Shown here: piece by piece, positions 1 to 19,025 of the stretch
Layout of the letters: the number at the start of each line of letters is the position of its first letter
Position numbering within the stretch: the stretch's first letter is position 1
Source: Verrucomicrobiia bacterium
GTDB taxonomy: Bacteria; Omnitrophota; Omnitrophia; Omnitrophales; Aquincolibacteriaceae
Assembly (NCBI GenBank): GCA_035495615.1
Contig: DATJFP010000047.1
Location: 4,106-68,105, forward strand
Reading direction: 5' to 3'
DNA: 64,000 nucleotides
Notes under the pieces: generated by a model
Told to the model about the DNA's origin: nothing
What the model saw: only the letters and a program-made list of their open reading frames with translations
The model's database searches: none
Program-made: the position numbers and the translations under genes

Positions 1-3000
1 AAGATCGAGTATTCGAAAGACAGCGGGGTCACTTATCCGGACGTAATCGCGTCTTCGACGGCCAACGACGGCACGCATCCGTGGCTCATTCCGGACGACA
101 TCCAGACCATCAAGAACATGCGCATCAAGATCTCTTCTCTCCCGACGACAGACGTCTGGGCCGTCGCGGCGTTTTCCCAGGGGTTTTTCCAGATCATCGG
201 CGCGCTGCAGATGGTGACGCCGAACGACTCGACGGGCGTCAAATGGCGCGTCGGCACGGCGCAGGACATCAAGTGGAACGCGACCGGCTCGATCGCCAAC
301 GTAAAACTCGAGTATTCTTCCTCCGGGTCCGGAGGCCCGTGGACGACGCTCGTCGCTTCCGCGCCTTCCGGAGCGGGGACGAATAAGTCTTACACCTGGA
401 CAATCCCGATCAATATTCCGTTCGTCAAAGATAATTTCCGGATCCGCGTCCTTGACGCGTTGAACACGAACGTGTTCGACGTGGCGGACGCCAGCAGCTC
501 GATTCTGGGCGACTTTACGATCACTGCTCCCGTCGCGGGGAATGTCTGGCAGGCGGAAAATACGCACACGATCACCTGGGCCACGCCTCAGGCGGGCGTG
601 CCGGCGACCGTCAAAATCGAATATGACCTCAATGACGGAAACGGCTACCTGCCCATCGCGGAGACCTTCGGCACGGCCAATGACGGCGTCGTTTCCAACA
701 GCGGCAGCCAGAACTGGACGCTGCCCGTGGGGCTTTCGGCCGCGGCCCGCATCCGCGTCTCGGATCCCGCCGACATCGATAGCGCGCGCACGAGCGATCC
801 GTTCAAGATCCGCGGCCGCCTGACCTTGACGGCGCCCAATGGCCTCGAGTCCTGGGAAATCGATACGCTGCATGACATCACGTGGACCAAGAAAGGTAAC
901 ATCGCGGCCGTGAAACTCGAGATTTCGACCGCGGGGGATGATCCGGCGCAGTACGAGGCGCTTGTCGACGCGGACGGCAAGGACACGCAGAACATCGATA
1001 CGACAGGCGCGGGTCCGTACACTTTCAACTGGAAAATCCCGAACCAGGCCGGTATTACGACGATCAACGGCAGGATCCGGATCGTGGATGCCACGGACTC
1101 GACGGTGCTCGATCAGTCCAACGGTGATTTCACGATCAAGGGCCGCGTGCAGGTCCTCACTCCGAACGGCGGCAATTCTCTGACCGTCGGCGTGCCTTAC
1201 GCGGTCACGGGCTCGGTCTTCGGCCCCATCGCGAACGTCAATCTCTATTATTCGACCAACGGCGGCGCCACCTATGACTACCCGGTGGAAGGCTGCGCCA
1301 CGGTTGCCGTGAGCCAGGCGGCTTTCAGCTGCAACTGGAATGTTCCGGACATCGTCGGCCTGCCGCTGCGCATCAAGGCTGTCGACGCGAATAACCCGGT
1401 CGTGTTCGACACCTCCGACAGCAATTTTGCGGTCAAAGGCGGCGCGACGCTGACCTCGCCGACTTCTTCCAGCGTCTGGATCGCGGGCGAAGCCAACAAC
1501 ATCACCTGGGACAGGACCGGAAACATCGGCAATGTCGATCTGTATTACAGCGTCAATGACGGCCCATTCAACACGATCACGACGAGCGTGCCGTCGCCTC
1601 TGGCCACCGGCAACAGCTTCTCGTGGGTGCTTCCGACGACGGCCATCGTATCGAATAATGTGAAGGTCAAGATCGACGGCGCGAATCTCGTCGGGCCGAA
1701 TGTCACGCAGGCGTTTGCGGTCAAAGGCAAGCTGACGCTCACCTATCCTGATGCCGCCGGCATCGAAACCGTCCTTGGCAATGTCATGAACGTCACCTGG
1801 ACCGTGGCCGGCGATATCGGAAACGTCAAAGTCGAATACTTTGACGGCACGTCCTGGACGACGGCAACCACCACGGCGCCGGAAGCAGGCCCTTATGCCA
1901 TGACGCTCAATGCGCCGCTCACGACGGTCGCGACCATGGGCGCCCGCGTCCGCATTTCCGACGCGGACGACGGCACGGTCTCCGATACTTCCTCGAACGA
2001 TTTTGTGGTCAGGCCGCACCTTCTTGTTCTTACTCCGGGCGGCAGCGAAGCCTGGGAAGTCGGAAGCACGCACAACATCACGTGGGAGGCGATCGGCTCG
2101 AATACGGCGAACGTCAAGATCGAATATTCGACCGACAACGGAGCCACTTATCCGAACGTGATCGCGGGTTCCACGCCGAACGACGGATCGTTCGGCTGGC
2201 TGATTCCCGACAATATTCAAAGCGTCCAAAACATGAAGGTGCGCATGCAGACCCTGCCGGCGACGGACCCGTGGTCGGTCACGGCGGCATCGAACGGCCT
2301 TTTCCAGATCATCGGCAAGCTTCAGTTGACGCAGCCCGGTGACACGACGGGCGTCAAATGGCGCATCAACAGTTCCGGCAATGAAATCAAGTGGAACGCC
2401 ACGGGTTCGATCGTGAACGTCAAGCTCGAATATTCGACGAACGGACTGACCGGGCCCTGGAGCACGATTGTCTCCTCCACGCCTTCCGGTTCGGGCAATG
2501 ACAAGAGCTATTCGTGGACGATTCCCTCCAATTTCCCGATCGTGAAGGATAATTTCCGGGTCCGGGTGCTGGATGCCGCGAACACGAACGTGTACGACAC
2601 GGCGGATGCCGCCAGCTCCACCCTCGCCAACTTCACGTTCGTTGCGCCGGTGTCCGGAAATGTGTGGGTCGCGGAAAGTTCTCAGACGATCACGTGGACG
2701 ACGCCGGTCAACGGCCTGCCCGCCAACGTCAAGATCGAGTACAACCTGAATGACGGCTCGGGCTGGCAATTGCTTCCCGAATCCGACGGCACGCCGAACG
2801 ACGGCATCGTGACTAACAGCGGAAGCCGGAGCTGGACCCTGGGCACGGGACTGTCGGCGGTGGCCCGCGTGCGCATTTCAGATGCCCTTGATTCGGACAG
2901 CCTGATCACCAGCGATGCGTTCAAGATCCGCGGCTCGCTCACCATGACCGCGCCGAACACGGGCATCGAATCCTGGGAAATCAATACCTTCAATAACATC

Positions 3001-6000
3001 AACTGGACGAAAAAAGGAAACATCACCGCGGTCCGCCTGGAATTCTCCAACAACGGCGACGATCCCGCGAGCTATGAGCCTCTGGTCGACGCGGACGGCA
3101 AAGACACGCAGAATATCGATACCACAGGTCCCGGCCCCTATACCTTTAACTGGAGAATTCCGGACCAGCCGGGCATCACCACGACTTCGGCGCGCGTGCG
3201 GGTCCTGGACGCCTCGGATCCGACGGTCTACGATCCCGCCAATTTCAATTTCACGATCAAGGGCCGCGTGTCGCTCACGACCCCGAACGGCGGGGAGACG
3301 CTGGGAGTCGGAACGCCTTATGCCGTAAGCGGCTCAGTCTTTGGCCCGATTACGAGCGTGAAGCTCTATTATTCCACTAACGGCGGCCTGACCTATGACT
3401 ATGCCATGGAAGGCTGCTCGGTGGTGGCCGTGGCGGGCGGCGCGTTCAGCTGCAACTGGAGCGTGCCCGACAAAATCGGCTCGAACCTCCGCGTGAAGGT
3501 TGAAGACGCGAACAACCCGCTTGTCTTCGACGTTTCGGATGCGAATTTCTCGATCAAAGGCAGCGCGGTCATCACGGCCCCGATCTCGACCTCGGTCTGG
3601 GGCGCCGGCGAAAGCCGCAACATTATCTGGAACGCGAACGGCACGATCGGCAACGTCGATCTTTTCTATTCCAACGACGGCGGCACGAACTGGACCACGA
3701 TCGCTTCCGGCGTCGCGACCACACTGGCGGTCGGGAATACGTTCAACTGGACGCTTCCCACGGACAACATCGTTTCCCTGAACGTCAAAGTCAAATTGCA
3801 GGGCAACGGCCTGATTGCGCCTGCGATTTCGGACGCGTTCACGGTCAAAGGAAAAATTACGCTGACCTATCCGGATGCGGCCGGCATCGAAACCACGCTG
3901 GGCGGTACGCTGAATGTCACCTGGACACGCGCAGGCGACATCGGGCCCGTGAAGGTCGAATATTACGACGGGACGAGCTGGTCCCTGATTACCATGAGCG
4001 CGCCCCAGGACGGCCCGTACGCCATGCTCCTCGACGCGCCGAACACGACCCTGGCGACGGCGGGCGCTTTGATCCGCGTTTCAGATCCGGACGACGCGAC
4101 GGTTTCCGACACCTCCTCCAATGCCTTCAAGGTGCTTCCGCTCCTGCAGGTCACGGCGCCGGCCGGCGGCGAATCGTGGAAGGTGAGCGACACGCATAAC
4201 ATTACCTGGAACTTCAAAGGAACGAACGTGGCGACCGTCAAAATCGACTACTCGAAAGACGGCGGCGTCACCTACAACGACGTGATCGCGGCATCGACGG
4301 CAAACGACGGCGACTTTGCATGGCTGATTCCGGACAGCATCACGGCGGCCCCGAGCGTGAAGGTGCGCATTTCGAGCCTTCCCGAAGCCGATCTGTTTGC
4401 CGTGCGCGCGGTGTCGAACGGCCTTTTCAAAATCATCGGCGGCCTGCTGCTTTCTTCGCCGACAGGCACGGACAAATGGGGCGTGGGCACGGCCCATGAC
4501 ATCAAATGGACGCGCACGGGATCGGTGGCGAACGTCCGTCTCGATTATTCCACCGACAACGGCACCACCTGGAACCAGATCGCGGGTTCGGTTCCGGGCG
4601 GCCAGGGCGACACCGGATACACCTGGACCGTCCCGAACGCCGCGGGCATTGTATCGACGACGGTGAAGGCACGCGTTTCCGATGTCACGGACGCGAGTGT
4701 GTTCAACGTTTCGCCGACGTTCTCGATCACGCCTTCCTTTATTATTACGGCGCCCGCGCTCGGGCAGAACGTGCCGGTCAACAAGAACTTCACGATCGCG
4801 TGGACGCGCCAGGGCCAGAACCCGACCGTGAACCTCTATTATTCCAAGGACGGATTCTCGGGCCCCGGCATTCCGATTGCGCTCGGCGCTTCGAACAACG
4901 GTTCCTATGCCTGGGCCGTTCCCGATTTTGCCGAGCTGAGCACCGGCCCGCTGCCTTTGCAGGTCCGCGTGGCCTATCCCGCTGACGAGACCGCTTATGA
5001 CGATTCGGATGTGTTCCATGCCGTTGCAGGCTTCACGGTCGTGTCGCCGAACGCGGCGAGCGACAAATGGGATGTGGGCAGCGCGCAGACGATCCGCTGG
5101 AAATCCACCAGCGCGAATTCGCCGCAGGCCAAAATCCGGTATTCCGTGGACGGCGGCGCGACGTTTCCTTTCACCCTCACTTCCACGGCGGGCAACAGCG
5201 GCGCGCCCGATGCGGAACGCACCTGGAGCTGGCCGTCGGTTCCGGATACGATCACGTCTCAGTTCAAAGTGCGTGTCGAAGATGCGAATGATGCGACCGC
5301 CTTTGATGATTCCGATGCCAACGCCAAGATCAAGGCTTATTTCGAGGTCCTGACGCCGTCGGCCGTGAACATTACCGCCACCGTAGGATCGACCTACAAC
5401 ATCACGTGGGGATGGGAAGGTACGGTCACAGACGTCCTGTTGTCCTACTCCAAAGACAATTTCGCCACTTCGTCGACGATCAACGGCGGCCTTCCCACGG
5501 CCAATGACGGCGTCTACGAATGGACCGTCCCTGACGACATCACGTCTTCGCCGCTGGTGAAAGTGCGCGTCCGCAGCAGCCTTGATTCGGATGCGGTCGA
5601 CATTTCCGACAACGCGTTCAAAATCCGCGGCAATTTCACGATCACCAAGCCGAACGGCACGGACCGCTTCAAAATCGGGTTGAGTGATACGATCCAGTGG
5701 ACGACGGTCGGCAATATTCCGAACGTGCGCGTGGTCGCTTACTCCACGCTGCCCGGAGACACCGGGTTCCCGTACACCGCGGCCGCACCGCTCGTCATCG
5801 CCAACAGCGTGGCGAACGTCCCCAACGGCAATAAAACCTACACCTGGTCGCCGATCCCGAACATGCCTTCGGCGAACCTGCGCGTGCGCGTCCTCGACGT
5901 CAACGATACAACCGTCTACGACGATTCGGATGCCGATTTCCGCATCCAGGGCCAGTTCACGGCCACCAATCCCATGTTCACCGCCGTGCCGGTGGGCTCG

Positions 6001-6540
6001 ACGCAGACGATCACCTGGACGTGGGGCGGCAGCATGCCGAACGCGGTCATCGAATACTCCGTGGACGGGGGAGCCTACGTTCCCATCCAGGAAAACGAGG
6101 GCACGCCCAATGACGGCATTGTCACCAACGACGGGTCCTTTGACTGGGTTGTGCCGGACACGATTTCCGCAGACGTGAGAATCCGCATCCGCGATCCGTT
6201 TGACAACGAAGTCCAGTCTGTCACCAATCCCTTCAAGATCCACGGCTTCCTGGACTGGACGTTTGCGCAGCCCGCGCAAAAATGGGTCGTCAATGAGAAC
6301 CATGCGCTGACCTGGACTTCAACGGGGAGCATTCCCAACGTCCTGATTGAAGTTTCCACCAACAACGGCATGAACTGGTCTCCCATCAAGGAAAACGAGG
6401 GAACAGCCAATGACGGCATCGTTCCCAATACCGGCACTTACACCTGGAACATTCCCGACACGCCGTCGCCGACCGTCAAGCTGCGCATCTCCGATCCCAA
6501 CGATCCGACGACGGTCAAAGACGTGACCGGTTTCACGTTC
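1..6540. repeat. Intragenic tandem repeat array: ~265-bp domain repeats organised in a ~2.1-kb (about 705-aa) higher-order unit present about 3 times (approximately 118-2232, 2233-4356, 4357-6540), plus the tail of a further copy at 1-117
   Basis: Protein blocks MRIKISSLPTTDVWAVAAFSQGFFQIIGALQ (nt 118), MKVRMQTLPATDPWSVTAASNGLFQIIGKLQ (nt 2233) and VKVRISSLPEADLFAVRAVSNGLFKIIGGLL (nt 4357) head colinear ~700-aa segments. DNA identity between copies is visibly about 70%, so the duplication is not recent. Confidence 0.8.
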
Positions 6541-8169
6541 ACCATCGACTATTACTACATTACGTGGCAGGTGCGCGACCTCCTGACCAACAACAGTCTG
6601 GACCAGTTGACCGTCTCTTCGAGCGACGGCTGGAACGCGTCGGCGCTTAACTCGCCGGTCGTCCACGGCCATCCGGCCGGCACTTACGTCGCCACCTGGA
6701 CGCGCGTCGAATACGGCGACCAGCAGGTCAACTTTGTGGCCGACAGCGACCAGACCGTGACGATCTTCATGGAAACTCAGGTCGTCCACCTTTGGGAATC
6801 CGTGACGGAACTGGCTTATAACGCGGCCGCGGATACCGTCTCCATCGCTTCGACGCTGCGCCGCGATGGCAGCACGGTTTCGGGCGTGGTCAGCTGCACC
6901 ATTCAATTCTATGACGCGGGCACGCTCATCAAGCAGTTCGACAACAACGGCGCCCCCGATGCCCAGGGCTTTTATAATTTCAACTGGGCCGCTCCCACCG
7001 GCCTGCAGTCCGGCAAGGTTTATAACGTCGTCACCACCATGAGCATCGCTTCCGGCGGCGTGTTCAAGACGCCGCGCACGTTCAACATCACCGACACCAA
7101 AAAACTGGAGGAGGTGTCTTCCGAAGTCGCGTCGAAGATCGACGTGCCTCTGTCCCAGGTCCGCGACAGCATTTCGAATACCGTGACGAACCAGCTCAGC
7201 GCGCAATCGGTCGTGATCCAGGGCCAGCTTGACGCGCAGACGACGGCTCTCAGCTCGCAGTTGAACAACCAGACCTCGCTCGTCTCGAACAAGCTGGACC
7301 AGCAAACCACCATTATCCAGACGCAGATGAACACCCTGACCGGTTCTCTCGTCAGCCTCGAGAACGCGACCACCGAGGTCCAGAACGCGACCGACGACGT
7401 CAAGTCAGCGACGTCTGACCTCGAAGAAACAAACATGAAATTTGCCGGACGCCTCCTTATTCCCACGTCCGTCCTGCTCGGCGACGACTTCGTCATCCGT
7501 TACCGCGGCGGCAAGACGGGCCTGATCCCGTTCCTGCGCGTCCTGAGTAACGAGGGTGAGCCCATCCTGCAGCAGCAGCCCATGAAGCCGGTGCCGGACG
7601 TCGAAGGCCTGTACGAATACGTCTTCCCGAGGATCAGCACCGCGGAATTCACGGCGGGCAAGGCTGTCACCGTCATGGTCGAAGAAAACGAGACGGGCAA
7701 TTTCGAAGCCGGATCGGTCTTCATCGAATCCACGACGCTCAGCGAAGTGCAGGGCCTTGTGGCCGCGGGCATGGGTAAGAGCAAGGAACTGCAGGAAATC
7801 AGCGAGCAGATAAAAGGCGTTTCGAACGTGGTTTCCGAAAAAGGCTACATCGGCCAGATGCTGGAAGCGCTCAAGAAGCAGGTCACCGAGATTCCCGAAG
7901 TTCTGCGCAAGGACAGGTCGAACAAGAAAATGCAGAACCAGATCCAGGAAGTCGCCGAACAGATCAGTACGCTGGCCGGAGACAAGGGCCTGAATCTGGG
8001 CGAGCTCATGGACGTCAGCGTCCAGGAAGGCCTGGAACAGTCCCCGAGCCTGCGCGAAATCCGCAAGCGCTCCGATAAGATGCAGGGCGCCATCGAAGTT
8101 GTCCAGCAAACCATTGAACGCGAACTCGTAAACGATGAAACGCCGATCGTGGAAGTCGTTTACTCATAA
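1..8169 (+). CDS. Giant cell-surface/adhesin-like protein, 5' partial (frame continues to window base 1). About 25 tandem ~90-aa Ig-like beta-sandwich repeats plus a distinct ~540-aa C-terminal module with a Q/T/S-rich heptad segment.
   Basis: Uninterrupted 8.2-kb ORF. Window bases 1-117 are already in frame and encode KIEYSKDSGVTYPDVIASSTANDG, the tail of a repeat unit. Each unit has the recurring motif ..ITW.. G.I.NVK(I/L)EYS.DGG.T(W/Y) ... NDG.(F/Y).W.IPD ... VKVRI.D. I recall this motif resembling the Kre9/KNH-like 'GPI-anchored' Ig-fold repeat of bacterial surface proteins, but that is from memory, not a search. Stop TAA at 8167-8169. Confidence 0.85.
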   Translation, partial: KIEYSKDSGVTYPDVIASSTANDGTHPWLIPDDIQTIKNMRIKISSLPTTDVWAVAAFSQGFFQIIGALQMVTPNDSTGVKWRVGTAQDIKWNATGSIANVKLEYSSSGSGGPWTTLVASAPSGAGTNKSYTWTIPINIPFVKDNFRIRVLDALNTNVFDVADASSSILGDFTITAPVAGNVWQAENTHTITWATPQAGVPATVKIEYDLNDGNGYLPIAETFGTANDGVVSNSGSQNWTLPVGLSAAARIRVSDPADIDSARTSDPFKIRGRLTLTAPNGLESWEIDTLHDITWTKKGNIAAVKLEISTAGDDPAQYEALVDADGKDTQNIDTTGAGPYTFNWKIPNQAGITTINGRIRIVDATDSTVLDQSNGDFTIKGRVQVLTPNGGNSLTVGVPYAVTGSVFGPIANVNLYYSTNGGATYDYPVEGCATVAVSQAAFSCNWNVPDIVGLPLRIKAVDANNPVVFDTSDSNFAVKGGATLTSPTSSSVWIAGEANNITWDRTGNIGNVDLYYSVNDGPFNTITTSVPSPLATGNSFSWVLPTTAIVSNNVKVKIDGANLVGPNVTQAFAVKGKLTLTYPDAAGIETVLGNVMNVTWTVAGDIGNVKVEYFDGTSWTTATTTAPEAGPYAMTLNAPLTTVATMGARVRISDADDGTVSDTSSNDFVVRPHLLVLTPGGSEAWEVGSTHNITWEAIGSNTANVKIEYSTDNGATYPNVIAGSTPNDGSFGWLIPDNIQSVQNMKVRMQTLPATDPWSVTAASNGLFQIIGKLQLTQPGDTTGVKWRINSSGNEIKWNATGSIVNVKLEYSTNGLTGPWSTIVSSTPSGSGNDKSYSWTIPSNFPIVKDNFRVRVLDAANTNVYDTADAASSTLANFTFVAPVSGNVWVAESSQTITWTTPVNGLPANVKIEYNLNDGSGWQLLPESDGTPNDGIVTNSGSRSWTLGTGLSAVARVRISDALDSDSLITSDAFKIRGSLTMTAPNTGIESWEINTFNNINWTKKGNITAVRLEFSNNGDDPASYEPLVDADGKDTQNIDTTGPGPYTFNWRIPDQPGITTTSARVRVLDASDPTVYDPANFNFTIKGRVSLTTPNGGETLGVGTPYAVSGSVFGPITSVKLYYSTNGGLTYDYAMEGCSVVAVAGGAFSCNWSVPDKIGSNLRVKVEDANNPLVFDVSDANFSIKGSAVITAPISTSVWGAGESRNIIWNANGTIGNVDLFYSNDGGTNWTTIASGVATTLAVGNTFNWTLPTDNIVSLNVKVKLQGNGLIAPAISDAFTVKGKITLTYPDAAGIETTLGGTLNVTWTRAGDIGPVKVEYYDGTSWSLITMSAPQDGPYAMLLDAPNTTLATAGALIRVSDPDDATVSDTSSNAFKVLPLLQVTAPAGGESWKVSDTHNITWNFKGTNVATVKIDYSKDGGVTYNDVIAASTANDGDFAWLIPDSITAAPSVKVRISSLPEADLFAVRAVSNGLFKIIGGLLLSSPTGTDKWGVGTAHDIKWTRTGSVANVRLDYSTDNGTTWNQIAGSVPGGQGDTGYTWTVPNAAGIVSTTVKARVSDVTDASVFNVSPTFSITPSFIITAPALGQNVPVNKNFTIAWTRQGQNPTVNLYYSKDGFSGPGIPIALGASNNGSYAWAVPDFAELSTGPLPLQVRVAYPADETAYDDSDVFHAVAGFTVVSPNAASDKWDVGSAQTIRWKSTSANSPQAKIRYSVDGGATFPFTLTSTAGNSGAPDAERTWSWPSVPDTITSQFKVRVEDANDATAFDDSDANAKIKAYFEVLTPSAVNITATVGSTYNITWGWEGTVTDVLLSYSKDNFATSSTINGGLPTANDGVYEWTVPDDITSSPLVKVRVRSSLDSDAVDISDNAFKIRGNFTITKPNGTDRFKIGLSDTIQWTTVGNIPNVRVVAYSTLPGDTGFPYTAAAPLVIANSVANVPNGNKTYTWSPIPNMPSANLRVRVLDVNDTTVYDDSDADFRIQGQFTATNPMFTAVPVGSTQTITWTWGGSMPNAVIEYSVDGGAYVPIQENEGTPNDGIVTNDGSFDWVVPDTISADVRIRIRDPFDNEVQSVTNPFKIHGFLDWTFAQPAQKWVVNENHALTWTSTGSIPNVLIEVSTNNGMNWSPIKENEGTANDGIVPNTGTYTWNIPDTPSPTVKLRISDPNDPTTVKDVTGFTFTIDYYYITWQVRDLLTNNSLDQLTVSSSDGWNASALNSPVVHGHPAGTYVATWTRVEYGDQQVNFVADSDQTVTIFMETQVVHLWESVTELAYNAAADTVSIASTLRRDGSTVSGVVSCTIQFYDAGTLIKQFDNNGAPDAQGFYNFNWAAPTGLQSGKVYNVVTTMSIASGGVFKTPRTFNITDTKKLEEVSSEVASKIDVPLSQVRDSISNTVTNQLSAQSVVIQGQLDAQTTALSSQLNNQTSLVSNKLDQQTTIIQTQMNTLTGSLVSLENATTEVQNATDDVKSATSDLEETNMKFAGRLLIPTSVLLGDDFVIRYRGGKTGLIPFLRVLSNEGEPILQQQPMKPVPDVEGLYEYVFPRISTAEFTAGKAVTVMVEENETGNFEAGSVFIESTTLSEVQGLVAAGMGKSKELQEISEQIKGVSNVVSEKGYIGQMLEALKKQVTEIPEVLRKDRSNKKMQNQIQEVAEQISTLAGDKGLNLGELMDVSVQEGLEQSPSLREIRKRSDKMQGAIEVVQQTIERELVNDETPIVEVVYS

Positions 8170-8197
8170 ACGGGCCTCGCGCCCCGGAGAAGCAACG

Positions 8198-9052
8198 ATG
8201 AAGACCGTCCCGTCCGCCGCCCCGCAAAAGAAGAGTTCCCCGCGCTTTCTCATGGCCGGCCTCGCGCTTCTCGGGCTGGCGTGCGCGTCCATGGCCACAG
8301 CCCCGGACCTGCGTGCGCAGGAAGCCGAACGCGAGCCGGTCACGATCAGCGTGGTCGTCTCCAATCCGTCCAAGGAAAAGACGCAGACCATCCCGGTCAA
8401 GATCGACCTGCCGAAGGAAATCACGCCCTCGGAAATCGTCGAAAACGAAGGCCTTCAGGTTCAATACGACGACCAGCGATCCATTTATTTCCTGTACAAC
8501 TCCAAGGTGGAACTCAAACCCAAACAGACGCGCGTTTTCAACGTCCAGGTCAAAGACGTCTGGTTTATCCCGAAGTCGGCGCTCGCGGAGGTAGGATCCG
8601 AAGCGCAGCGGCTGCTCGCCCGCCTGAAGGGGACGGAGTATTACGATTCCGGCAAACGCCTCTATGATCTCATCGGCGAAAAGGTTGCCGGCATCGAGGC
8701 CAAGCAGAATGACGAGACGCTCGGGCAAAAGCAGCGCATCGGCGCCTACCGCCTCAATCTCCTTGCCATGGAAGAGATCAAACAGCTGCTCGAGAAGATG
8801 GAAAAGATCCTGACGGTGACCGGCGGCGTGCCGACTCCGAACATTCCCGAAAAGCTGAAGTCCGACGCGCCGTCGGCGAAGACGACCTGGATGATTATTT
8901 TCGCGATCCTGATTTTCGTGGGATCGGTCGGATTGGTTTTTTTTGTCACCTGGTACCGGAAAGCCGCGGCCGAAAAAACGGTCCGCGACGAATCTCAGGG
9001 CGCTATGCCCGGCGATTTGCCGGGAGAGGACGTGAGAAACCGGGTGGCCTGA
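8198..9052 (+). CDS. Hypothetical bitopic protein with N-terminal signal peptide and C-terminal TM helix; first gene of the ATPase/T2SS-like gene string
   Basis: ATG 8198 sits 8 nt after GGAGA (8186-8190). N-terminus MKTVPSAAPQKKSSPRFLMAGLALLGLACASMA is signal-peptide-like with a possible lipobox-like LAC. The C-terminal hydrophobic stretch TTWMIIFAILIFVGSVGLVFFVTWY is followed by a charged tail. I recognise no family. Confidence 0.6.
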   Translation: MKTVPSAAPQKKSSPRFLMAGLALLGLACASMATAPDLRAQEAEREPVTISVVVSNPSKEKTQTIPVKIDLPKEITPSEIVENEGLQVQYDDQRSIYFLYNSKVELKPKQTRVFNVQVKDVWFIPKSALAEVGSEAQRLLARLKGTEYYDSGKRLYDLIGEKVAGIEAKQNDETLGQKQRIGAYRLNLLAMEEIKQLLEKMEKILTVTGGVPTPNIPEKLKSDAPSAKTTWMIIFAILIFVGSVGLVFFVTWYRKAAAEKTVRDESQGAMPGDLPGEDVRNRVA

Positions 9053-9097
9053 TAAACCCTTCAACCGCGCGGCCGCGCCGCGCCGGAGGTAGGAGAA

Positions 9098-9337
9098 GTG
9101 CTGAAGGTAGTGTTGTTCAGTTCGAAGCAGATGATTTACGAAGGGCAGGCGCGAAGTGTGACCCTGCCCGGGGAACAGGGATGGTTTGAAGTGCACCCCT
9201 TCCACAAGCCTCTGCTTACCCGGCTCAAGGCCGGCTCCCTTCTCATCGATAAAACCCCTTTCGCCATCCGGCATGGCGCCGTCAAAGTCAAAAACAACGA
9301 AGTCGTCATCATGGCAAGGCCGGTGGGCGCCCTATGA
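9098..9337 (+). CDS. atpC: F-type ATPase epsilon-like subunit, N-terminal beta-sandwich domain only (79 aa; C-terminal helical hairpin absent)
   Basis: GTG 9098 follows GGAGGTAGGAGA. Sequence VTLPGEQGWFEVHPFHKPLLTRLKAGSLLI matches the epsilon signature (..PG..GefGiLp.H.Pllt.L.pG.). Its stop overlaps the next start (ATGA at 9334-9337). Confidence 0.6.
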   Translation: MLKVVLFSSKQMIYEGQARSVTLPGEQGWFEVHPFHKPLLTRLKAGSLLIDKTPFAIRHGAVKVKNNEVVIMARPVGAL

Positions 9338-9552
9338 GCCGGAACATCGCGCTGACCATCATTTTCATCATTTGCATCCTTGGGCCCTCGGGCGTATTCG
9401 CGGCGACCGGTTTTTCGAGCATCCAGGCCCTGGGCAGAAATCCGTCGGCGGCGCCGAAGATCATGAGCGCCATGACGCTTTGCCTGCTGTTTACCGAAAG
9501 CGTGGCGATCGTCGCCTTTCTGATCGCCTGGCAGTTGTTCGCGCCTAATTAA
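9334..9552 (+). CDS. atpE: F-type ATPase c subunit (72 aa, two TM helices)
   Basis: Two hydrophobic helices separated by a polar loop (QALGRNPSAAPKI). Conserved carboxylate in helix 2 (LLFTESVAIVAF). Confidence 0.7.
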   Translation: MSRNIALTIIFIICILGPSGVFAATGFSSIQALGRNPSAAPKIMSAMTLCLLFTESVAIVAFLIAWQLFAPN

Positions 9553-9595
9553 GGAATAACGACCGGGCCCGGGTGACGGGGCCCAAGGAGAAAAA

Positions 9596-10315
9596 ATGCC
9601 TTTCGTCGGAACGTTTTTGTTTCTGCTCATTTTTTGCGGGGGACTGCTTTTCATTATGAACCGTGTCCTGAACACCCAGGCGCACCAGGTCACGCGCCAG
9701 CTCATGACCATTTCTGAAGAGCAGGACAAGAAAATCACGGAGCTGCAGAAACAGGCCAAGGACAACGAGCTCAAAGCCGCCCAGCTCATCAATGAGGCTC
9801 GCCAGGAAGCCGAGCGTGTCAAAAAAGAGGCGCGCGAAAAGGCGGACATGATCCTCGATCAAATGCAGCAGCAGGGCCGGACCGAGGCCGAGCACATCGT
9901 CAGCGAGGCCGTGAAAACGCGCGACGCCATGCGGCAGGAAATGGTCCAGCAGATGGAAAAAAAAGTGGTGGTGCGGGCCTGCCAGGTCGTACTGGAGATC
10001 CTGTCCGCCGAAGCCCGGAAAAGCGCGCATGAGCAGATGCTCTGCCAGCTCATGGAAGGCGGACTGCAGACGCTCGAGAAGATGGACTCGAGAGAGAAGA
10101 TCGCCCGCGTCCGGATCGTCAGTGCCTTTCCCCTAGAGAGCGGGCTGCGCGCCAAGATCGAAGAAACCGTGCAGAAAAAACTGGGGCACCTGCCCGAAAT
10201 CGCTGAGGTCGTCGATGAGAAACTCGTCGCGGGGCTGCGCATCGAATTGGGCCATCTGGTTCTGGAGGGTTCCCTGGCCTCACGCGTGAAGGAGTATCTG
10301 AAAAATGCCGCTTAA
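9596..10315 (+). CDS. atpF: F-type ATPase peripheral-stalk protein, apparent b/delta fusion (N-terminal TM, long coiled coil, delta/OSCP-like C-terminus)
   Basis: AAGGAG RBS at 9583-9588. N-terminal TM FVGTFLFLLIFCGGLLFIM, then a charged heptad region. The C-terminus LVAGLRIELGHLVLEGSLASRVKEYL resembles the delta C-terminus. Position is immediately 5' of alpha. Confidence 0.55.
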   Translation: MPFVGTFLFLLIFCGGLLFIMNRVLNTQAHQVTRQLMTISEEQDKKITELQKQAKDNELKAAQLINEARQEAERVKKEAREKADMILDQMQQQGRTEAEHIVSEAVKTRDAMRQEMVQQMEKKVVVRACQVVLEILSAEARKSAHEQMLCQLMEGGLQTLEKMDSREKIARVRIVSAFPLESGLRAKIEETVQKKLGHLPEIAEVVDEKLVAGLRIELGHLVLEGSLASRVKEYLKNAA

Positions 10316-11785
10316 TCCGGCCCGTTCTGCCCAACCGGGAAACGTTTTTGACGTGAGAGAAGTAGGTCGCGTCACGACCGTCAAGGAATTCATCGTCGAG
10401 GCCGAAGGCCTGCCTTCCTGCCTGAACGGCCAGAAGGTCGAATTCGAGAACGGCGACGTCGGCATGGTCATGGGCTTCAGCGAAAGCAAGGTGAAGATCC
10501 TGGGATTCGGCAATAAATCCGAACTGCACGCGGGCGACCAGGTGTATTCCAGGGGAGAGCCCTTTCACACGCCCGTGGGTGACGCATTTTTGGGGAGAAT
10601 CATAACGAGCCTCGGAAAGCCGTTTGACGAACGCGAGGCGCCTCAGGCCGACAATTCTTTTCCCATCTTCAAGGACGCGCCCGGCGTCATGGACCGCAAG
10701 CCGCTTTCCGACCCGCTCGAGACGGGGCTGCGTATCATCGACGCCGCGTTTCCTCTTGCCAAGGGACAGCGGCAGCTCATCATCGGCGACCAGATGACGG
10801 GAAAGACCTCGATCATCACGGATACGATCCTGAACCAGAAGGGCAAAAACGTGATCTGCATTTACTGCGCGATCGGACAAAGCCGGTCGTCGTTCCTCAA
10901 GGTGCTGCGGCTTCTGCGGGAAAAAGGCGCCATGGATTATACGGTCGTCTATGCGGGCATCGCTTCCGTGCCTTTGGGCGAACAGTACCTCGCCCCGTAT
11001 TCGGCCTGCGCGCTCGCGGAATATTTCGCGTCCAAGGGCCGCGATGTCTTCGTGGCCTTCGACGACCTGGGAAAGCACGCCTGGGCCTACCGCCAGCTTT
11101 CGCTGCTCTTGCAGCGTTCTCCCGGCCGCGAGGCGTATCCGGGCGACATCTTCTACATCCATTCGCAGCTCCTCGAACGGGCGGGGAAATTCGTGAGTGA
11201 CCTGGGCGGCGGCACGATCAGTTTCTTTCCGGTCGTGGCGACGATCCAGGGCGACATCACCGGCTATATCCAGACGAACCTGATTTCGATCACCGACGGC
11301 CAAATTTATCTGAACACGAACCTTTTTCAAAAAGGCTTCCGGCCGGCCATCGACTTCGGACTCTCGGTTTCCCGTATCGGCAACCGCGCGCAGACCGAAG
11401 CGCTCCGGGAGATGAGCGGGAAACTCAGGCTGGAGTACCTTCAGTTCCAGGAATTGCAGCGGATGACCACGATGAAGGCGGATCTTTCCGACTCCGCCGA
11501 ACAAAGGCTGCGGCGCGGCGAACTCATGAACCAGCTTTTCGTGCAGCCGAACACCAAGCCGTCGCCGCTTGCCGAGCAGCTCCTCTTTCTCTATGGGCTG
11601 CGTTCGGGCATTCTCGAGCAAAAGCCGCAGGACTGGCTCCGTTTCCGGGACAACGTGTTTGCGTGGATGCGCCAGCATTATCCGGGCATTCTCGAGGAGA
11701 TCGGGGCCAAGAAAAAATGGGACGACGCGCTGAAGCAGAACGTGGATGAGGCGTTTAAGCGGTTTTTTTCACCCGGAGGCGCGGC

Positions 11786-11789
<4 letters not shown>
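10305..11789 (+). CDS. atpA: F1 ATPase alpha subunit (494 aa)
   Basis: Non-catalytic Walker A GDQMTGKTS. Long colinear similarity to F1 alpha (IDAAFPLAKGQRQLIIGD, YVAFDDLGKHAWAYRQLSLLLQRSPGREAYPGDIFYIHSQLLERA). Start overlaps the b/delta stop. Confidence 0.85.
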
Positions 11790-14540
<2,751 letters not shown>

Positions 14541-14582
14541 GATGAGAAACGCCGCGCATGACAGCTTAAAGGGCCAAAGATC

Positions 14583-16247
14583 ATGAAAAGCAGAATGAAG
14601 ATCGGCCAGCACCTGGTGGAAAAAGGGCTGATCACCGAAGACCAGCTGAAGCAGGCGCTCGACGCCCAGGCGAAGAAAGACCGATTCCTCGGCGAGATTT
14701 TCGTGGAAAACGGATGGGTCACCGAAGAGCAGCTCATGGAATCCCTGGCCGAGCAGTTCAAAATGCAGCTGGTCCGTCTTGCGGAAACGGCTGTCGACCC
14801 GAAGCTCAAGGAAGTCTTTCCCCTGAAGGTGGCGCTGCATTACAAGGTCATGCCGCTCGAGCTCAAAGGCACGCAGTTGACGATCGCGATTGCCGCGCCG
14901 CAGGACATCCTGCTTCTCGACCATGTCAGCCTTGCGCTCCGGCAAAAGTACGTGTTGAACGCCGTCCTTGCTACCGGGCATGAAATCGACAAGGCCATTT
15001 CCCGTTTTTATGGTCTCGGCGCGGAAACCGTGGACAGAATTCTGCTCCGGGAAGGACAGCCCCAGGCCCAGGCCTCGGCCGAGCCCGCGGTTCAGGACAT
15101 TCAGAAAAGCGAAGAAGCGTCCGTCGTGAAGCTGGTGAATCAGTTTCTGCTGGAAGCCTACCAGCGGAGGGCGACGGACATTCATCTCGAGCCGTTCCGG
15201 GACAAGATCCGGCTCCGGTACCGCGTGGACGGTGTGCTCGAAACCGCCGATCTTCCCGACACGATGCGCCGTTTTTTTCCCGCGATCATTTCGCGCATCA
15301 AGGTGCTTTCCGGGCTCAACCTCGTGGAAAAACGCGCGCCCCAGGACGGCCGCGGCAGCGTCACCGTGGGCAGCCAGAAGCTGGACCTCAGAGTGTCTGT
15401 CCTGCCCAGCTCCGCGGGGGAGGGCGTCGTCATCCGCATTCTGCCCAACGCCATGCTCTATAACCTTTCCGAACTCGGCCTCGAGAGGCGTAACCTCGAG
15501 ATCATGCAAAAAATGCTGGCCAAGCCTTACGGGCTGATGTTCGTCACGGGGCCGACCGGGAGCGGCAAAACCACGACTCTGTACTCGGCGCTCAAGCAGA
15601 TCAACACCGAAGAGAGGAAAATCATCACGATCGAGGACCCGGTCGAATACGAGCTTCCGGGCATCATGCAGGTTCCCGTGAATCCCCAGGTCGGCATGGG
15701 GTTTGCGCAGGGGCTCCGAAGCATGCTGCGCCATGACCCGGACGTCATGATGGTCGGCGAAGTCCGCGACGTCGAGACCGCGGAACTGGCCATCCGCATT
15801 GCCTTGACCGGCCACCTGGTGCTCTCCACGCTGCACACCAACGACGCCGCCTCGGGTTTCGCGCGCCTGACGGACATGGGCATTCCGCCTTACCTGCTTG
15901 CGTCTTCGGTGAGCTGCCTCGTGGCGCAGCGCCTGATCCGGAAAATCTGTGACAAATGCAGACAGGAAGTCCCCGGCGTTGTCCCGCGCTCTTTCCACGG
16001 GGAGGGCTGCAATGCCTGCCACCGGACCGGCTATAACGGACGCATGGCGATTTACGAAGTCCTTCCTGTCACGGCCGAGATCAAAAAACTCGTGCTTCAG
16101 AAAGCCTCGGTCGACGAGATCCGCCAGCTTGCCGTCGATCAAGGCATGACGAGTCTTCAGACCGAAGGCTGGGCGAAAGTCAAGGAAGGGCTGACCTCGC
16201 CCGAAGAGGTGCTTCGGATCACAAGCAACGAAACCATGGAGATCTGA
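14583..16247 (+). CDS. gspE: Type II secretion / type IV pilus assembly ATPase (GspE/PilB family) with N-terminal MshEN-type domain
   Basis: N-terminal KIGQHLVEKGLITEDQLKQALDAQ and FLGEIFVENGWVTEEQLMESLAEQ motifs. Walker A GPTGSGKTTTL. Asp/His boxes. C-terminal tetracysteine CDKC...CNAC. Confidence 0.9.
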   Translation: MKSRMKIGQHLVEKGLITEDQLKQALDAQAKKDRFLGEIFVENGWVTEEQLMESLAEQFKMQLVRLAETAVDPKLKEVFPLKVALHYKVMPLELKGTQLTIAIAAPQDILLLDHVSLALRQKYVLNAVLATGHEIDKAISRFYGLGAETVDRILLREGQPQAQASAEPAVQDIQKSEEASVVKLVNQFLLEAYQRRATDIHLEPFRDKIRLRYRVDGVLETADLPDTMRRFFPAIISRIKVLSGLNLVEKRAPQDGRGSVTVGSQKLDLRVSVLPSSAGEGVVIRILPNAMLYNLSELGLERRNLEIMQKMLAKPYGLMFVTGPTGSGKTTTLYSALKQINTEERKIITIEDPVEYELPGIMQVPVNPQVGMGFAQGLRSMLRHDPDVMMVGEVRDVETAELAIRIALTGHLVLSTLHTNDAASGFARLTDMGIPPYLLASSVSCLVAQRLIRKICDKCRQEVPGVVPRSFHGEGCNACHRTGYNGRMAIYEVLPVTAEIKKLVLQKASVDEIRQLAVDQGMTSLQTEGWAKVKEGLTSPEEVLRITSNETMEI

Positions 16248-17458
16248 TGCCTCAGTTTCGATTCCTCGCCAAAGTGAACCCGACGCAGACCGTTGAAGAT
16301 GTCTTGGAAATGGAAAGCAGAGAGGCTGTGCTGCAGTATCTTTCCAAGATGGGATACACGCCGCTGAAGGTCATCCAGATTCAATCTGCGGCGCCCGCCG
16401 CGGGCAAGATCAGCGGCCGCGCGGTTTCTTTCCATCATCTCCAGTCCTTTACGCGTCAATTTGCGAGTCTCATCCGGTCGCAGACGCCGGTCTTGAGAGC
16501 GCTCCGCGTCCTGGAAGAGCAGGCGGAAAGCCCGCGCCTGAAAGCGATCCTCAACGCCGTGCTCGATAACATGGAGCGCAACGGCGCGACGCTGTCCGAA
16601 GCCTTGCGCTGTTTCCCGGAAACCTTTCCGGCCGATTACGTGAACCTCATCAATGCCGGAGAGCTGGGCGGCGCCATAGAAGAGATCCTGGACAAGCTGG
16701 CCGAGAAAATGGACCGCGAAGCCGCGCTGCGTTCGAAGCTGCAGAGCGCTGTCGTTTACCCCGCGTTTGTCGGCGTGATGGGCGCCGTCACGGTGGTCGT
16801 CCTTCTTGTTTTTGTGATGCCGCGCATCCTCGTCATGCTGAAACGGCTGCACGTCGAATTGCCCTGGCCCACGAGGGCGCTCATAGCGCTGACGCATATT
16901 TTGACGCATCCCTTTTTCTGGGCCGGAGCCGCGGCACTTGCCATCCTCGGGATCATCGTCTGGAAGGGCCTGTCCTCGCAGGCCGGCGAGCTCTTCGACA
17001 AACTCTTGCTGCGCGTGCCGGTGGCGGGCCGAGTGGCTCTCTATACGGAAATGGTGAGATTCTGCCGTTCACTGGGACTGCTCATGGACCACGGCGTCCT
17101 GATCATCCAGGCGCTGGAGGCCAGCATCGCGGTGGTGGGGAATCGCTGGATCCGCAGCCAGCTGGAGACGCTGCCGAAAATGGTCAGGGAAGGGCATCTG
17201 CTGACGGAAGGGATGAAAAAACTCCCTCTGGCTTCGCCGTATCTGCTCCAGACCCTGAAGGTCGGGGAAGAGGGCGGGCGGATGCCGGAAGGATTGCTGG
17301 AGGCCGCGAATTTTTTGGAAAGGGAGGCGGTAAGCCGCATGCAGGTGCTGGCGTCGCTTCTGGAACCGGTCATGATTCTCGCGGTGGGAGCGGTCGTCGG
17401 ATTCATCGTCATGGCCACGATGCTTCCGATCTTCGAAATCAGCAGCTCGATCCGGTGA
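16247..17458 (+). CDS. gspF: Inner-membrane platform protein GspF/PilC family (403 aa)
   Basis: TGATG overlap with gspE. Duplicated GspF-type domains, each followed by TM segments. N-terminal FRFLAKVNP...LSKMGYTPLKV motif. Confidence 0.85.
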   Translation: MPQFRFLAKVNPTQTVEDVLEMESREAVLQYLSKMGYTPLKVIQIQSAAPAAGKISGRAVSFHHLQSFTRQFASLIRSQTPVLRALRVLEEQAESPRLKAILNAVLDNMERNGATLSEALRCFPETFPADYVNLINAGELGGAIEEILDKLAEKMDREAALRSKLQSAVVYPAFVGVMGAVTVVVLLVFVMPRILVMLKRLHVELPWPTRALIALTHILTHPFFWAGAAALAILGIIVWKGLSSQAGELFDKLLLRVPVAGRVALYTEMVRFCRSLGLLMDHGVLIIQALEASIAVVGNRWIRSQLETLPKMVREGHLLTEGMKKLPLASPYLLQTLKVGEEGGRMPEGLLEAANFLEREAVSRMQVLASLLEPVMILAVGAVVGFIVMATMLPIFEISSSIR

Positions 17459-17510: not shown

Positions 17511-17975
17511 ATGGAACCGCGAAAAAAAACGGCCGCATTTTTTGAAAGCCAAAGAGGTTTTACGCTCATCGAACTCATGATCGTGATCATCATCATCGGA
17601 GCTCTCGCGGCCCTTGCCGTGCCCAGGCTGGCGGGACGGACCGAGGCGGCAAGGCAAACGGCGGCCGAGGCGGACATTAAGGGAAATATTGCGCTCGCCC
17701 TCCGGCTGTATGAAGTCGACAACGGCCGGTATCCGAGCACCGAGCAGGGGCTCCATGCGCTGCTGGAAAAGCCCTCCTCTTCTCCGGTGCCGGCGAATTG
17801 GAAAGGCCCTTATCTTGAAGAGCTGCCGATGGACCCCTGGGGCAAACCTTACGATTATAAATATCCCAGCACGCATCCCCCGCGGGATTTTGACCTGGCT
17901 TCGCTAGGGCCGGACGGGGTCGCGAGCGATGATGACATCGCAAACTGGCGTCAGGCCGAGGCGTCGAAAACGTGA
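17511..17975 (+). CDS. gspG: Major pseudopilin/pilin, GspG-like (prepilin-type N-terminal signal)
   Basis: Leader then G|FTLIELMIVIIIIGALAALAVP (class III signal, Glu+5). 154 aa. Conserved GspG-like globular part (YEVDNGRYPSTEQGLHAL, DPWGKPY). Confidence 0.8.
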   Translation: MEPRKKTAAFFESQRGFTLIELMIVIIIIGALAALAVPRLAGRTEAARQTAAEADIKGNIALALRLYEVDNGRYPSTEQGLHALLEKPSSSPVPANWKGPYLEELPMDPWGKPYDYKYPSTHPPRDFDLASLGPDGVASDDDIANWRQAEASKT

Positions 17976-18421
17976 TGCCCCGGGCGGGCCGGAAAAAAGG
18001 ATGGCTGAACTGCCGGGGGATGACGCTCATCGAAGTTCTGGTCAGCCTCGTCATTCTTTCCACGGCCACGGTTTTCGTGCTCGGAGCCCTTGTCAAGGCC
18101 GCCGAAGTCCAGAGGGTGCAGGAGTGCCGGAGCAAAGCCCAGTTCTTCGCACTCTCGAAATTCGCGGCCCTCGAAATGCGCGTCTTGCCCCCCCAAAAAA
18201 TCGATGAAAAGCAAAAAGGCCGCTTCCAGGACGGCAAGGATGCGTTCGAGTGGGACGTCCAGAACTCGGTCGAAGCCGGGGAAACCCAGGACGAAAACGG
18301 CGAAGCGCTTCAAACCCCGCTTATTCTGAAAAGGGAATTGCATGTTTCTTGGAACCAGGGAGAAGAAAAAAACAGCATGTCGTTTCAGACGCTGTCATGG
18401 TACCGCCCGCCCGCGGAATGA
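17972..18421 (+). CDS. Minor pseudopilin (GspI/GspH-like), 149 aa
   Basis: ATGA overlap with the previous gene. Prepilin signal ..CRG|MTLIEVLVSLVILSTATVFVLG with Glu+5. Confidence 0.6.
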   Translation: MMPRAGRKKGWLNCRGMTLIEVLVSLVILSTATVFVLGALVKAAEVQRVQECRSKAQFFALSKFAALEMRVLPPQKIDEKQKGRFQDGKDAFEWDVQNSVEAGETQDENGEALQTPLILKRELHVSWNQGEEKNSMSFQTLSWYRPPAE

Positions 18422-19025
18422 TGTCCGCCGCGGCGACGCGGGCTTCACGCTCTTCGAGCTTCTGATCGCCATGTCGCTGATGACCTTGGCCCTCATGGCC
18501 GTGGGCAGCGTGCTCATGGGCGGCTCGCGCATCTGGCAGCGCCTCGAATGCGGCGGCTCGCAGGAACAGATGCTGCTCATCGGATTTCAGGAAATGAAGC
18601 GCGACTTGCAGTCTTATCATGCTTTTGTGCCGGTGCCGTTTGACGGGCAATATGAGCGTGTCACGTTCCCGGCGCTCGTGCGAGCCGAAACGGAAGAAGA
18701 AAGTGAACTCCGGGAGCCCGGCCGTCTGGCCTATTTTTTCGACAAGCGGAAAGGGCTGTTGTGCAAATCTTCCACGCCGTACCGCACCCTGCGGCAGACC
18801 CGGCCCGAAGATCAATGCGTCGTCCTGGCGGAGAATGTCGACAAGGTCAGTCTGAAGTATTACCACTATGACGCGGAACAGAAGTCGTTCGGCTGGTCGG
18901 GCACCTGGCGCGATCAAGAACCTCCGCTGTCGGTAGCGGTTGAGGTTGTTTACCATGATTCCTGCACGCTCGAAAAAAGAAAAAAAGGCGTCGAGATCGC
19001 GATTCCTACGGGACCAATCGGGTAG
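18342..19025 (+). CDS. Minor pseudopilin (GspJ-like). Start uncertain: no ATG close to the prepilin motif, and the longest ORF start overlaps the previous gene by 80 nt.
   Basis: Class III signal RRGDAG|FTLFELLIAMSLMTLALMAV. Downstream globular domain. Overlaps the following GspK-like gene. Confidence 0.5.
   Translation: MFLGTREKKKTACRFRRCHGTARPRNDVRRGDAGFTLFELLIAMSLMTLALMAVGSVLMGGSRIWQRLECGGSQEQMLLIGFQEMKRDLQSYHAFVPVPFDGQYERVTFPALVRAETEEESELREPGRLAYFFDKRKGLLCKSSTPYRTLRQTRPEDQCVVLAENVDKVSLKYYHYDAEQKSFGWSGTWRDQEPPLSVAVEVVYHDSCTLEKRKKGVEIAIPTGPIG

Follow-up and report, generated by a model that had tools for sequence, protein, structure and literature searches.

The 64,000-nt stretch of contig DATJFP010000047.1 analysed here, referred to in its full length as the window, opens inside a very large protein-coding gene on the + strand, which is the subject of this report. 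Frame 1 runs without interruption from base 1, where an earlier note on this DNA had already recorded it as open, up to the stop codon at 8167–8169 and gives 2,722 codons; the ATG at position 118 at which an open reading frame (ORF) finder starts the gene is merely the first ATG in the window and not the gene start. The translated chain is dominated by tandem immunoglobulin (Ig)-like domains and ends in a non-repetitive module. We propose that the residues encoded by nt 1–8169 probably form the C-terminal part of a Sec-exported, membrane-tethered and fibre-like surface protein several thousand residues long, which would be a long adhesin or spacer. The features of the gene and of its neighbours are collected in Table 1.

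Domains were delimited by offset-identity analysis and by segmentation with a hidden Markov model (HMM) built iteratively from the protein itself. These were used in place of a BLASTP self-comparison, which returned the trivial self-match only. Residues 1–2183 (nt 1–6549) are made up of 22 contiguous domains, D00 to D21, of 95–110 aa (~98 aa), each recovered by the self-built HMM with an E-value of 1e-16 to 1e-32 and separated from the next by 0–1 residues, while the 539 aa that follow (nt 6550–8166) are non-repetitive. With three further beta domains predicted in this C-terminal module, the count agrees with the 'about 25' given earlier. Offset identities revealed a higher-order period of 705–708 aa, with DNA repeat families 2115–2124 nt apart, in keeping with the ~705-aa, ~2.1-kb period already noticed. 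In an all-versus-all matrix the domains fall into the pattern D00 / D01–D07 / D08–D14, with in-register pairs 53–71% identical over a background of 20–35%, so the super-repeat unit is seven domains (a heptad) and not the eight first counted. Nor does the block occur three times: there are two full copies and one preceding last domain. Identities of D15–D21 to D01–D07 in register are only 23–41% (41, 33, 23, 27, 26, 26 and 29%), and D15–D21 are seven unique domains with no third copy of the super-repeat. The preceding domain, D00, is the tail of an upstream unit that the earlier note had correctly suspected and had placed at bases 1–117; it extends over bases 1–198, and nt 1–120 are 72–74% identical to 2116–2235 and 4240–4359. 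Since the repeat homology reaches base 1, the giant gene is cut by the window edge.

The two copies of the super-repeat share ~73% of their nucleotides and 64.5% of their amino acids over 704 codons, with a synonymous divergence (dS) of ~1.1 and a ratio of nonsynonymous to synonymous divergence (dN/dS) of 0.26, and the longest exact word repeated anywhere in 1–8169 is 23 nt. The duplication is ancient and both copies are under purifying selection. Given this divergence and the shortness of the longest exact word, no repeat-driven collapse or mis-join is possible in 1–8169. Tandem Repeats Finder reported no repeat in the giant gene, because the period is longer than the program allows and the copies agree at no more than ~73% of positions. 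The long ORFs on the opposite strand, such as that at 4081–6303, are shadow ORFs of this 60% GC gene.

Table 1. Features of the giant gene and of the genes that follow it (positions in the window; the mat ortholog, with domains numbered M, is the full-length relative described in the text)
Feature	Position (nt)	Strand	Remarks
D00, 'g-type' last domain of an earlier 7-domain super-repeat	1..198	+	N-terminally cut by window edge; residues 1–66 align with D07 and D14 at 61% identity
Super-repeat copy 1, seven Kre9/KNH-like Ig domains D01–D07	199..2313	+	aa 67–771
CX11C pairs	1294–1332 and 3415–3453	+	aa 432/444 and 1139/1151; fourth domain of each heptad
Super-repeat copy 2, seven Ig domains D08–D14	2314..4437	+	aa 772–1479; orthologous to M088–M094 of the mat ortholog, 70–85% identity
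Seven unique Ig-like domains D15–D21	4438..6549	+	aa 1480–2183; counterparts M095–M101 of the mat ortholog
C-terminal non-repeat module	6550..8169	+	539 aa and stop codon
Putative anchor-partner gene	8198..9052	+	284 aa (HTL47647.1, VL688_06235); starts 28 bases after the giant's stop
F-type ATPase genes epsilon, c, b/delta fusion, alpha, gamma, beta	9098..14091	+	epsilon 79 aa; c 72 aa
Stand-alone MshEN c-di-GMP-binding protein	14088..14540	+	150 aa; directly before gspE
gspE	14583..16247	+	own MshEN domain
gspF	16247..17458	+	
gspG	17511..17975	+	
Pseudopilins	17972..19025	+	
gspK	18940..20004	+	
PilM/PilN-like gspL	19956..21494	+	
gspM	21478..22053	+	
Rotamase_2 peptidyl-prolyl isomerase (PPIase)	22406..23470		

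The domains belong to a recognisable family. Pfam Kre9_KNH (PF10342) was matched over four stretches with 46.3 bits (E 7e-12), above its gathering cut-off of 24.6 bits, and also appears in the Pfam lists of the relatives P0125, P0137 and P0201 (P and L numbers are our handles for related proteins and loci). An AlphaFold model of a single domain (D15, from a 25-row domain alignment) has a predicted local distance difference test (pLDDT) score of 96.2 and is all-beta with 8 strands. The closest matches in the PDB are generic folds of the Ig, Fn3 and carbohydrate-binding-module kind, with E-values so weak (at least 1.6e-3) that no specific structural relative emerges. Membership in Reelin_subrepeat-B (PF21471) was rejected: the protein as a whole scores 48.1 against a cut-off of 27, yet its best stretch spans no more than positions 58–76 of the 127 in the profile, and in a profile search against PDB sequences Reelin chains match query positions 32–66 only, which suggests a shared ~20-residue core motif and not membership. 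Both Pfam families are extracellular beta-sandwiches; in the fungal and animal proteins they occur singly or in small numbers, in contrast to the tandem arrays of 22 to 101 domains seen here. The likeness is confined to the domain level and carries no information on function. A scan of GTDB representatives, among which the source genome is not included, gave only domain-level relatives (~36% identity) in other phyla. The earlier note had described a giant tandem Ig-like beta-sandwich protein and had set this against a cytoplasmic repeat family; the profile match and the model bear out the description, and the Pfam domain search gave a family of extracytoplasmic and not cytoplasmic type.

When metagenomes were scanned with the first 170 residues, two matches, separated by 19 kb, came from a single microbial-mat contig of 294,708 bp (ENA ORBV01000018). 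Stitching of the two loci (L009 and L008) gave one ORF of 11,217 codons, whose likely-start protein, the mat ortholog, is 11,198 aa long and begins MSQSEVERPDKKVRKPRGAAERLCLHALIYFMSLTIAITGV, a charged stretch followed by a hydrophobic one (an N-terminal signal-anchor). It contains 101 contiguous Ig-like domains with no gap above 15 aa: 15–16 unique domains, then ~11 heptads with 12 g-type markers, then seven unique domains and the module. The window protein is collinear with its last 2,715 residues at 71% amino acid identity (dN/dS 0.12 over 2,713 codons, no stop), and the two heptads of the window are orthologs of its last two. Upstream of the aligned part, the mat ortholog has a further 8,476 residues, so that the several kilobases of upstream extension first predicted are probably an underestimate. 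A second complete relative, P0128, has 6,910 aa, is 54% identical, and comprises 58 domains with six g-type markers and five heptads; no exact repeat above 86 nt was found in its gene. In both complete proteins the first heptad-closing g-type domain lies at about residue 2,100–2,200. If this architecture holds for the window's gene, it would encode at least ~4,800 aa and could encode more than twice that number; the lower figure corresponds to two heptads and some 6.4 kb of further upstream sequence for signal peptide, head and ~16 unique domains. The visible residues include five cysteines, four of which make a CX11C pair in the d-type (fourth) domain of each heptad. This pair is kept in all 12 d-type domains of the mat ortholog and is probably a disulfide that marks an extracytoplasmic location. 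A hydropathy scan of the 2,722 visible residues found no hydrophobic segment.

The gene of the mat ortholog carries an exact direct repeat of 3,131 nt, at gene positions 8553–11683 and 12783–15913 (offset 4,230 nt, two heptads). Either a block was duplicated very recently or the assembler introduced a loop, and the heptad count of ~11 is therefore uncertain by about two. The uncertainty in copy number lies in the upstream, younger heptads, and the visible repeats are trustworthy. The earlier concern that near-repeats of this size are collapsed by assemblers is answered for the visible part by the 23-nt longest word and the dS of ~1.1, and stands for the unseen upstream part, where the ortholog has its exact duplicate. 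Short-read contigs from the same organism (JGI 3300045391 and Logan SRR9009773) begin at ~6749 and ~7990, inside the 3′ part of the giant gene; these starts and the absence of an NCBI record for the gene could reflect low coverage, upstream repeats or a pseudogene flag. Just upstream of the giant gene, loci L009 (415–1833) and L028 (8245–9510) each have an IS200-like Y1 transposase-domain gene (421–473 aa), which suggests a conserved, possibly domesticated neighbour and not a random insertion.

The C-terminal module defines a family of its own. A word-indexed search gave four relatives, and an exhaustive profile search of 1.84 billion representatives gave 289 at E≤1e-3 and 95 at E≤1e-30. Many are giants of 3,000–6,941 aa that carry the module at their C-terminal end or close to it, and complete members begin with signal peptides and carry as heads either a 360-aa domain (mat ortholog, P0128 and P0125) or, in the distant P0201, Laminin_G_3. 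The low-confidence model of the module (mean pLDDT 51.9) was used for secondary-structure layout alone, and predicts two beta domains (nt 6550–7086), a ~95-residue helix (about nt 7105–7428), a third beta domain (nt 7468–7731) and a helical region (nt 7765–8124), before the protein ends in the conserved strand PIVEVVYS. A profile search of the module against PDB sequences returned nothing useful. The structural matches of the model, generic tandem beta-sandwiches with TM-scores of 0.13–0.17 and a SiiE tandem-domain structure among them, were not used for functional inference.

The gene that follows encodes a 284-aa protein with a signal peptide (residues 17–35), an extracytoplasmic part with beta and helical structure, a transmembrane (TM) helix (residues 232–250) and a short basic tail. 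Hydropathy peaks at 1.93 in the signal peptide and 2.93 in the TM helix, and no Pfam or NCBIfam family was matched. In its mature form the protein aligns with the final ~240 residues of the giants P0137 and P0202 at 36–40% identity (E 1e-42 to 1e-44), and in such fused giants this anchor tail begins 3–6 residues after the module. Of 149 family representatives, 36 have the anchor tail fused (36–38 over all counts) and 57 end exactly at the module; unfused giants are directly followed by a homologous anchor gene, which often overlaps the giant's end. In five loci the anchor is a separate gene immediately behind the giant; homologs of this kind are present on the mat contig (55% identity) and in loci L028 (47%), L029 (45%) and L030 (E 8e-90). 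Because the tail is fused to giants elsewhere, in a Rosetta-stone relationship, the 284-aa protein looks like the giant's putative membrane anchor, the module would be membrane-proximal and the N-terminal head distal. In the split arrangement found in the window, the module may dock to the anchor non-covalently.

Beyond the anchor gene come six ATP-synthase genes and a string of genes like those of a type II secretion system (T2SS). Alpha and beta pass the NCBIfam atpA and atpD equivalog cut-offs, while gamma, epsilon, c and b/delta score far below theirs; epsilon consists of the N-domain only, and the gene order is unusual. No a-subunit gene, nor any other multi-TM ORF, was found in the 64 kb. 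The block is a conserved context and may be either a housekeeping enzyme or a dedicated one. The giant had been described as directly upstream of the secretion genes, but 6.4 kb, with the anchor gene and the six ATP-synthase genes, intervene. The order giant (with or without anchor), atp and gspE/F recurs in six divergent loci with giants of 30–71% identity, always with the atp block between the giant or anchor genes and gspE; the giants of L028, L029, L030, L031 and L033 are 30–54% identical to that of the window. No secretin was found in the 64-kb window, and GspC is likewise absent from the T2SS-like string. In L030 (385–2112) and L032 (7315–8925) a secretin is encoded a short distance upstream of the giant, and the secretin gene of the window may lie in the DNA upstream of it. 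On this synteny, a link between the giant and the secretion genes is supported, and the suggestion that the giant is a partner of that machine is a live hypothesis. In L031, the position of the stand-alone cyclic di-GMP (c-di-GMP)-binding MshEN gene is taken by a PilZ-fused GspE and three small PilZ genes; c-di-GMP control of the secretion machine seems to be conserved.

Two further observations concern the wider window. A second very large gene (31793–37771, + strand) encodes 1,992 aa: behind a signal peptide, ~1,850 residues make up an unbroken coiled coil that is rich in E, A, K, Q and L, and there is no TM segment. It accounts for the strong AT skew (0.3–0.47) at 32–38 kb, and the multi-'TM' ORFs opposite it are shadow ORFs. 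The named close homologs of GlyS (24471–26576), 53–57% identical, come from Candidatus Omnitrophica/Omnitrophota, as do the anchor homologs, while the identical NCBI proteins HTL47666.1 (GlyS) and HTL47647.1 (anchor) are labelled 'Verrucomicrobiae bacterium'. This taxon label is probably wrong or outdated and the genome of Omnitrophota lineage.

The full architecture can be inferred from the complete relatives. The protein would begin with a signal peptide or signal-anchor and a ~360-aa head, continue with ~16 unique Ig-like domains, n copies of the ~706-aa super-repeat and seven unique Ig domains, and end in the 539-aa module. Its stalk would be a chain of ~98-aa Kre9/KNH-like beta-sandwiches with linkers of 0–1 residues, and stalk length would depend on how many super-repeats are present (no fewer than 2 here, 5 and ~11 in the relatives) and would change through gain and loss of 7-domain blocks. 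Ig-like stalks measure roughly 3.5–4 nm per domain, and the rod would accordingly reach at least ~80 nm in the visible part and 350–400 nm in the mat ortholog. At the membrane-proximal end, the module would be coupled to the 284-aa protein, which has type I topology and a single TM helix and which, in about a quarter of the family representatives, continues the giant covalently at its C-terminus; because of this coupling, the head would form the distal and probably ligand-binding end. The tethered protein would then serve as a long adhesin or spacer towards a host or prey cell, and the secretin and T2SS-like genes would offer a possible route for the stalk across the outer membrane.

Several points weigh against this proposal. 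In a diderm, a protein tethered to the inner membrane would need a route across the outer membrane, and the 64-kb window holds no secretin. The N-terminus of the gene lies outside the window, and the assumed head and signal peptide are modelled on relatives of 54–71% identity. Pfam identified no ligand-binding domain in the visible part and found no match for the 360-aa head of the mat ortholog and close relatives. Docking of the module to the split anchor is a candidate interaction only, and the module model has a mean pLDDT of no more than 51.9. The conserved gene order, which includes housekeeping-looking atp genes, could reflect lineage-wide synteny rather than functional coupling, and promoter and terminator scans across 7900–14700 gave hits at chance level, which neither join nor separate the genes. 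Finally, NCBI annotation holds no protein record for the giant gene, though both flanking genes have one, and the deposited contig may therefore list it as a partial gene or a pseudogene.

Of the other readings, an envelope scaffold or coat survives best, although we regard it as rather unlikely. Here the Ig chain would run along or around the cell, which is very small, and form a belt in the periplasm or on the surface, or a 'veil' like an S-layer, that would set the spacing or shape of the envelope. A tether to a cytoplasmic-membrane anchor would suit such a role, as would the lack of a recognisable ligand-binding domain in the visible part or the 360-aa head; the predicted long helices of module and anchor could oligomerise, and the coiled-coil protein encoded 23 kb downstream would be a second secreted giant. 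Swings in copy number (5 versus ~11 heptads) and a very recent 3.1-kb duplication are, however, more typical of surface adhesins than of structural rulers, and distant members carry Laminin-G lectin-type heads.

A released T2SS cargo, exported by Sec, folded in the periplasm and passed through a secretin by the neighbouring T2SS-like machine to end up free or loosely bound, is in our view quite unlikely. The order with gspE/F and pseudopilin genes is kept in six loci, with a secretin upstream in two, the visible protein has no TM segment or known cell-wall sorting signal, and the literature ties giant genes to T2SS genes. T2SS substrates bear no known sequence signature, and what speaks for T2SS dependence here is conserved synteny. 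Against release, a TM-anchored tail ends the protein in 36 of the 149 representatives and elsewhere an anchor gene follows at once, often with an overlap, which points to retention; a rod of 0.5–1.1 MDa would also lie far beyond known T2SS substrates. The earlier alternatives of cargo or partner adhesin can be separated to this extent: synteny and the upstream secretins in L030 and L032 support a partner as a hypothesis, and the TM anchor makes a plain soluble cargo less likely.

A bolder and improbable extension joins the secretin, the giant Ig stalk, the TM anchor, the F-type ATPase set and the pseudopilus machine into one apparatus, in which dedicated ATPases would deploy a membrane-tethered 100–400-nm fibre and might also power or retract it. 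In the ATPase set, epsilon is truncated, gamma, c and b/delta are very divergent, and the a-subunit is missing. F1-like ATPases have been recruited to surface machinery in mycoplasmas, which such an apparatus would resemble; its fibre would serve attachment to host or prey cells.

An assembly artefact or decaying pseudogene is very improbable and, for the visible part, largely refuted. The window begins inside the gene, same-organism short-read assemblies break at ~6749 and ~7990, the ortholog contig has its exact 3,131-nt repeat, and the gene lacks an NCBI protein record; yet the longest exact repeat in 1–8169 is 23 nt, the copies differ at ~27% of bases with a dN/dS of 0.26, dN/dS against the ortholog is 0.12 over 2,713 codons without a stop, and the same architecture was independently assembled in at least six samples. 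The chance of an RTX-type giant adhesin like LapA, SiiE or MpIBP, exported C-terminus-first by a type I secretion system (T1SS) and held by an N-terminal plug, is close to nil: it shares the overall look of ~100 tandem ~100-aa Ig-like domains, and a SiiE structure is among the generic matches of the module model, but there are no RTX/HemolysinCabind repeats or T1SS signal at the C-terminus, no ABC/MFP/TolC genes nearby and no T1SS genes in the 64 kb, and relatives have N-terminal Sec signal peptides and a C-terminus apparently coupled to a TM anchor.

Further classes of giant or sorted protein were also rejected. Archaeovorins have numerous TM helices, a divergent SecA_DEAD domain and usually more than 30,000 aa; the window protein has no hydrophobic segment in 2,722 aa and no SecA domain, and its ortholog has 11,198 aa and an N-terminal hydrophobic segment only. 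Dockerin-type giants were set aside for lack of a dockerin or TSP3 match in Pfam, and LPXTG/sortase, PEP-CTERM and T9SS-CTD sorting because the end, ...ETPIVEVVYS, has no hydrophobic tail and no such domain was found.

In its build, the proposed tethered stalk resembles the fibrillar adhesins. SiiE of Salmonella, LapA of Pseudomonas, MpIBP of Marinomonas and Ebh of Staphylococcus are fibrillar adhesins with Ig-like stalks. Such proteins have a rod of tens to ~100 tandem ~100-aa beta-sandwiches with very short linkers, vary in repeat number among relatives, and are cell-anchored at one end with the other presumably target-binding. Of these traits, the stalk is present, with 22 tandem domains here and 101 in the ortholog; the adjacent gene encodes a putative TM-anchor protein, which 36 of 149 relatives carry as a fused tail; and for the adhesive domain, the N-terminus lies upstream of the window, close relatives have the 360-aa head that Pfam does not match, and distant ones have Laminin_G_3 heads. 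The family differs in having an N-terminal Sec signal peptide and a C-terminal type I TM anchor, separate or fused, where the known systems use T1SS/RTX, LPXTG or a beta-barrel, and in Kre9/KNH-like domains as opposed to BIg/Big_1-3. To our knowledge, a higher-order 7-domain periodicity is no described feature of the SiiE, LapA, MpIBP or Ebh adhesins.

Such periodicity is familiar from the titin A-band, where 7- and 11-domain Ig/Fn3 super-repeats match a partner lattice. In both proteins Ig-like domains form blocks of fixed number, and domains at the same position across blocks are more alike than neighbours. Titin differs in that there is no homology or shared cellular context, and no periodic partner is known for the window stalk, whose 7-domain pattern may simply record block duplication by unequal recombination.

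The closest context is the lineage itself. Omnitrophota are tiny, mostly uncultured and host-dependent or predatory, and their giant genes are known but functionally opaque. In two studies, Omnitrophota giants have T2SS or pilus genes and a Rotamase_2 PPIase as statistically associated neighbours: a T2SS-like locus that includes the PPIase is conserved near giant genes (West-Roberts et al. 2023, bioRxiv 10.1101/2023.11.21.568195), and secretion or pilus genes flank 13 of 14 giants (Nielsen & Lui 2026, bioRxiv 10.64898/2026.06.07.730766). The giants described there, including the class 2 'tandem-repeat scaffolds' of the second study, share with the window protein the lineage, a multi-thousand-residue secreted chain dominated by one repeated domain, the flanking T2SS-like genes and Rotamase_2 PPIase, and repeats that are old at the nucleotide level; they differ in the repeat itself, the Kre9/KNH-like Ig domain being outside the high-copy Pfam families that both papers list. 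Giant secreted proteins near T2SS genes are thus already known from Omnitrophota, and the window protein belongs among them, built like a fibrillar adhesin. What appears to be new, in the limited literature searched, is that the stalk is of Kre9/KNH type and repeats in blocks of seven domains, that a C-terminal module defines the family, that the anchor is either split off or fused, and that an invariant atp block separates the giant gene from the T2SS genes. The family offers a tractable, well-delimited example with a head–stalk–module–anchor architecture, in which a Rosetta-stone partner would fix the membrane orientation and stalk length differs between relatives in 7-domain (~706-aa) steps, and it would make the link between giants and T2SS genes concrete as a tethered fibre rather than free cargo.

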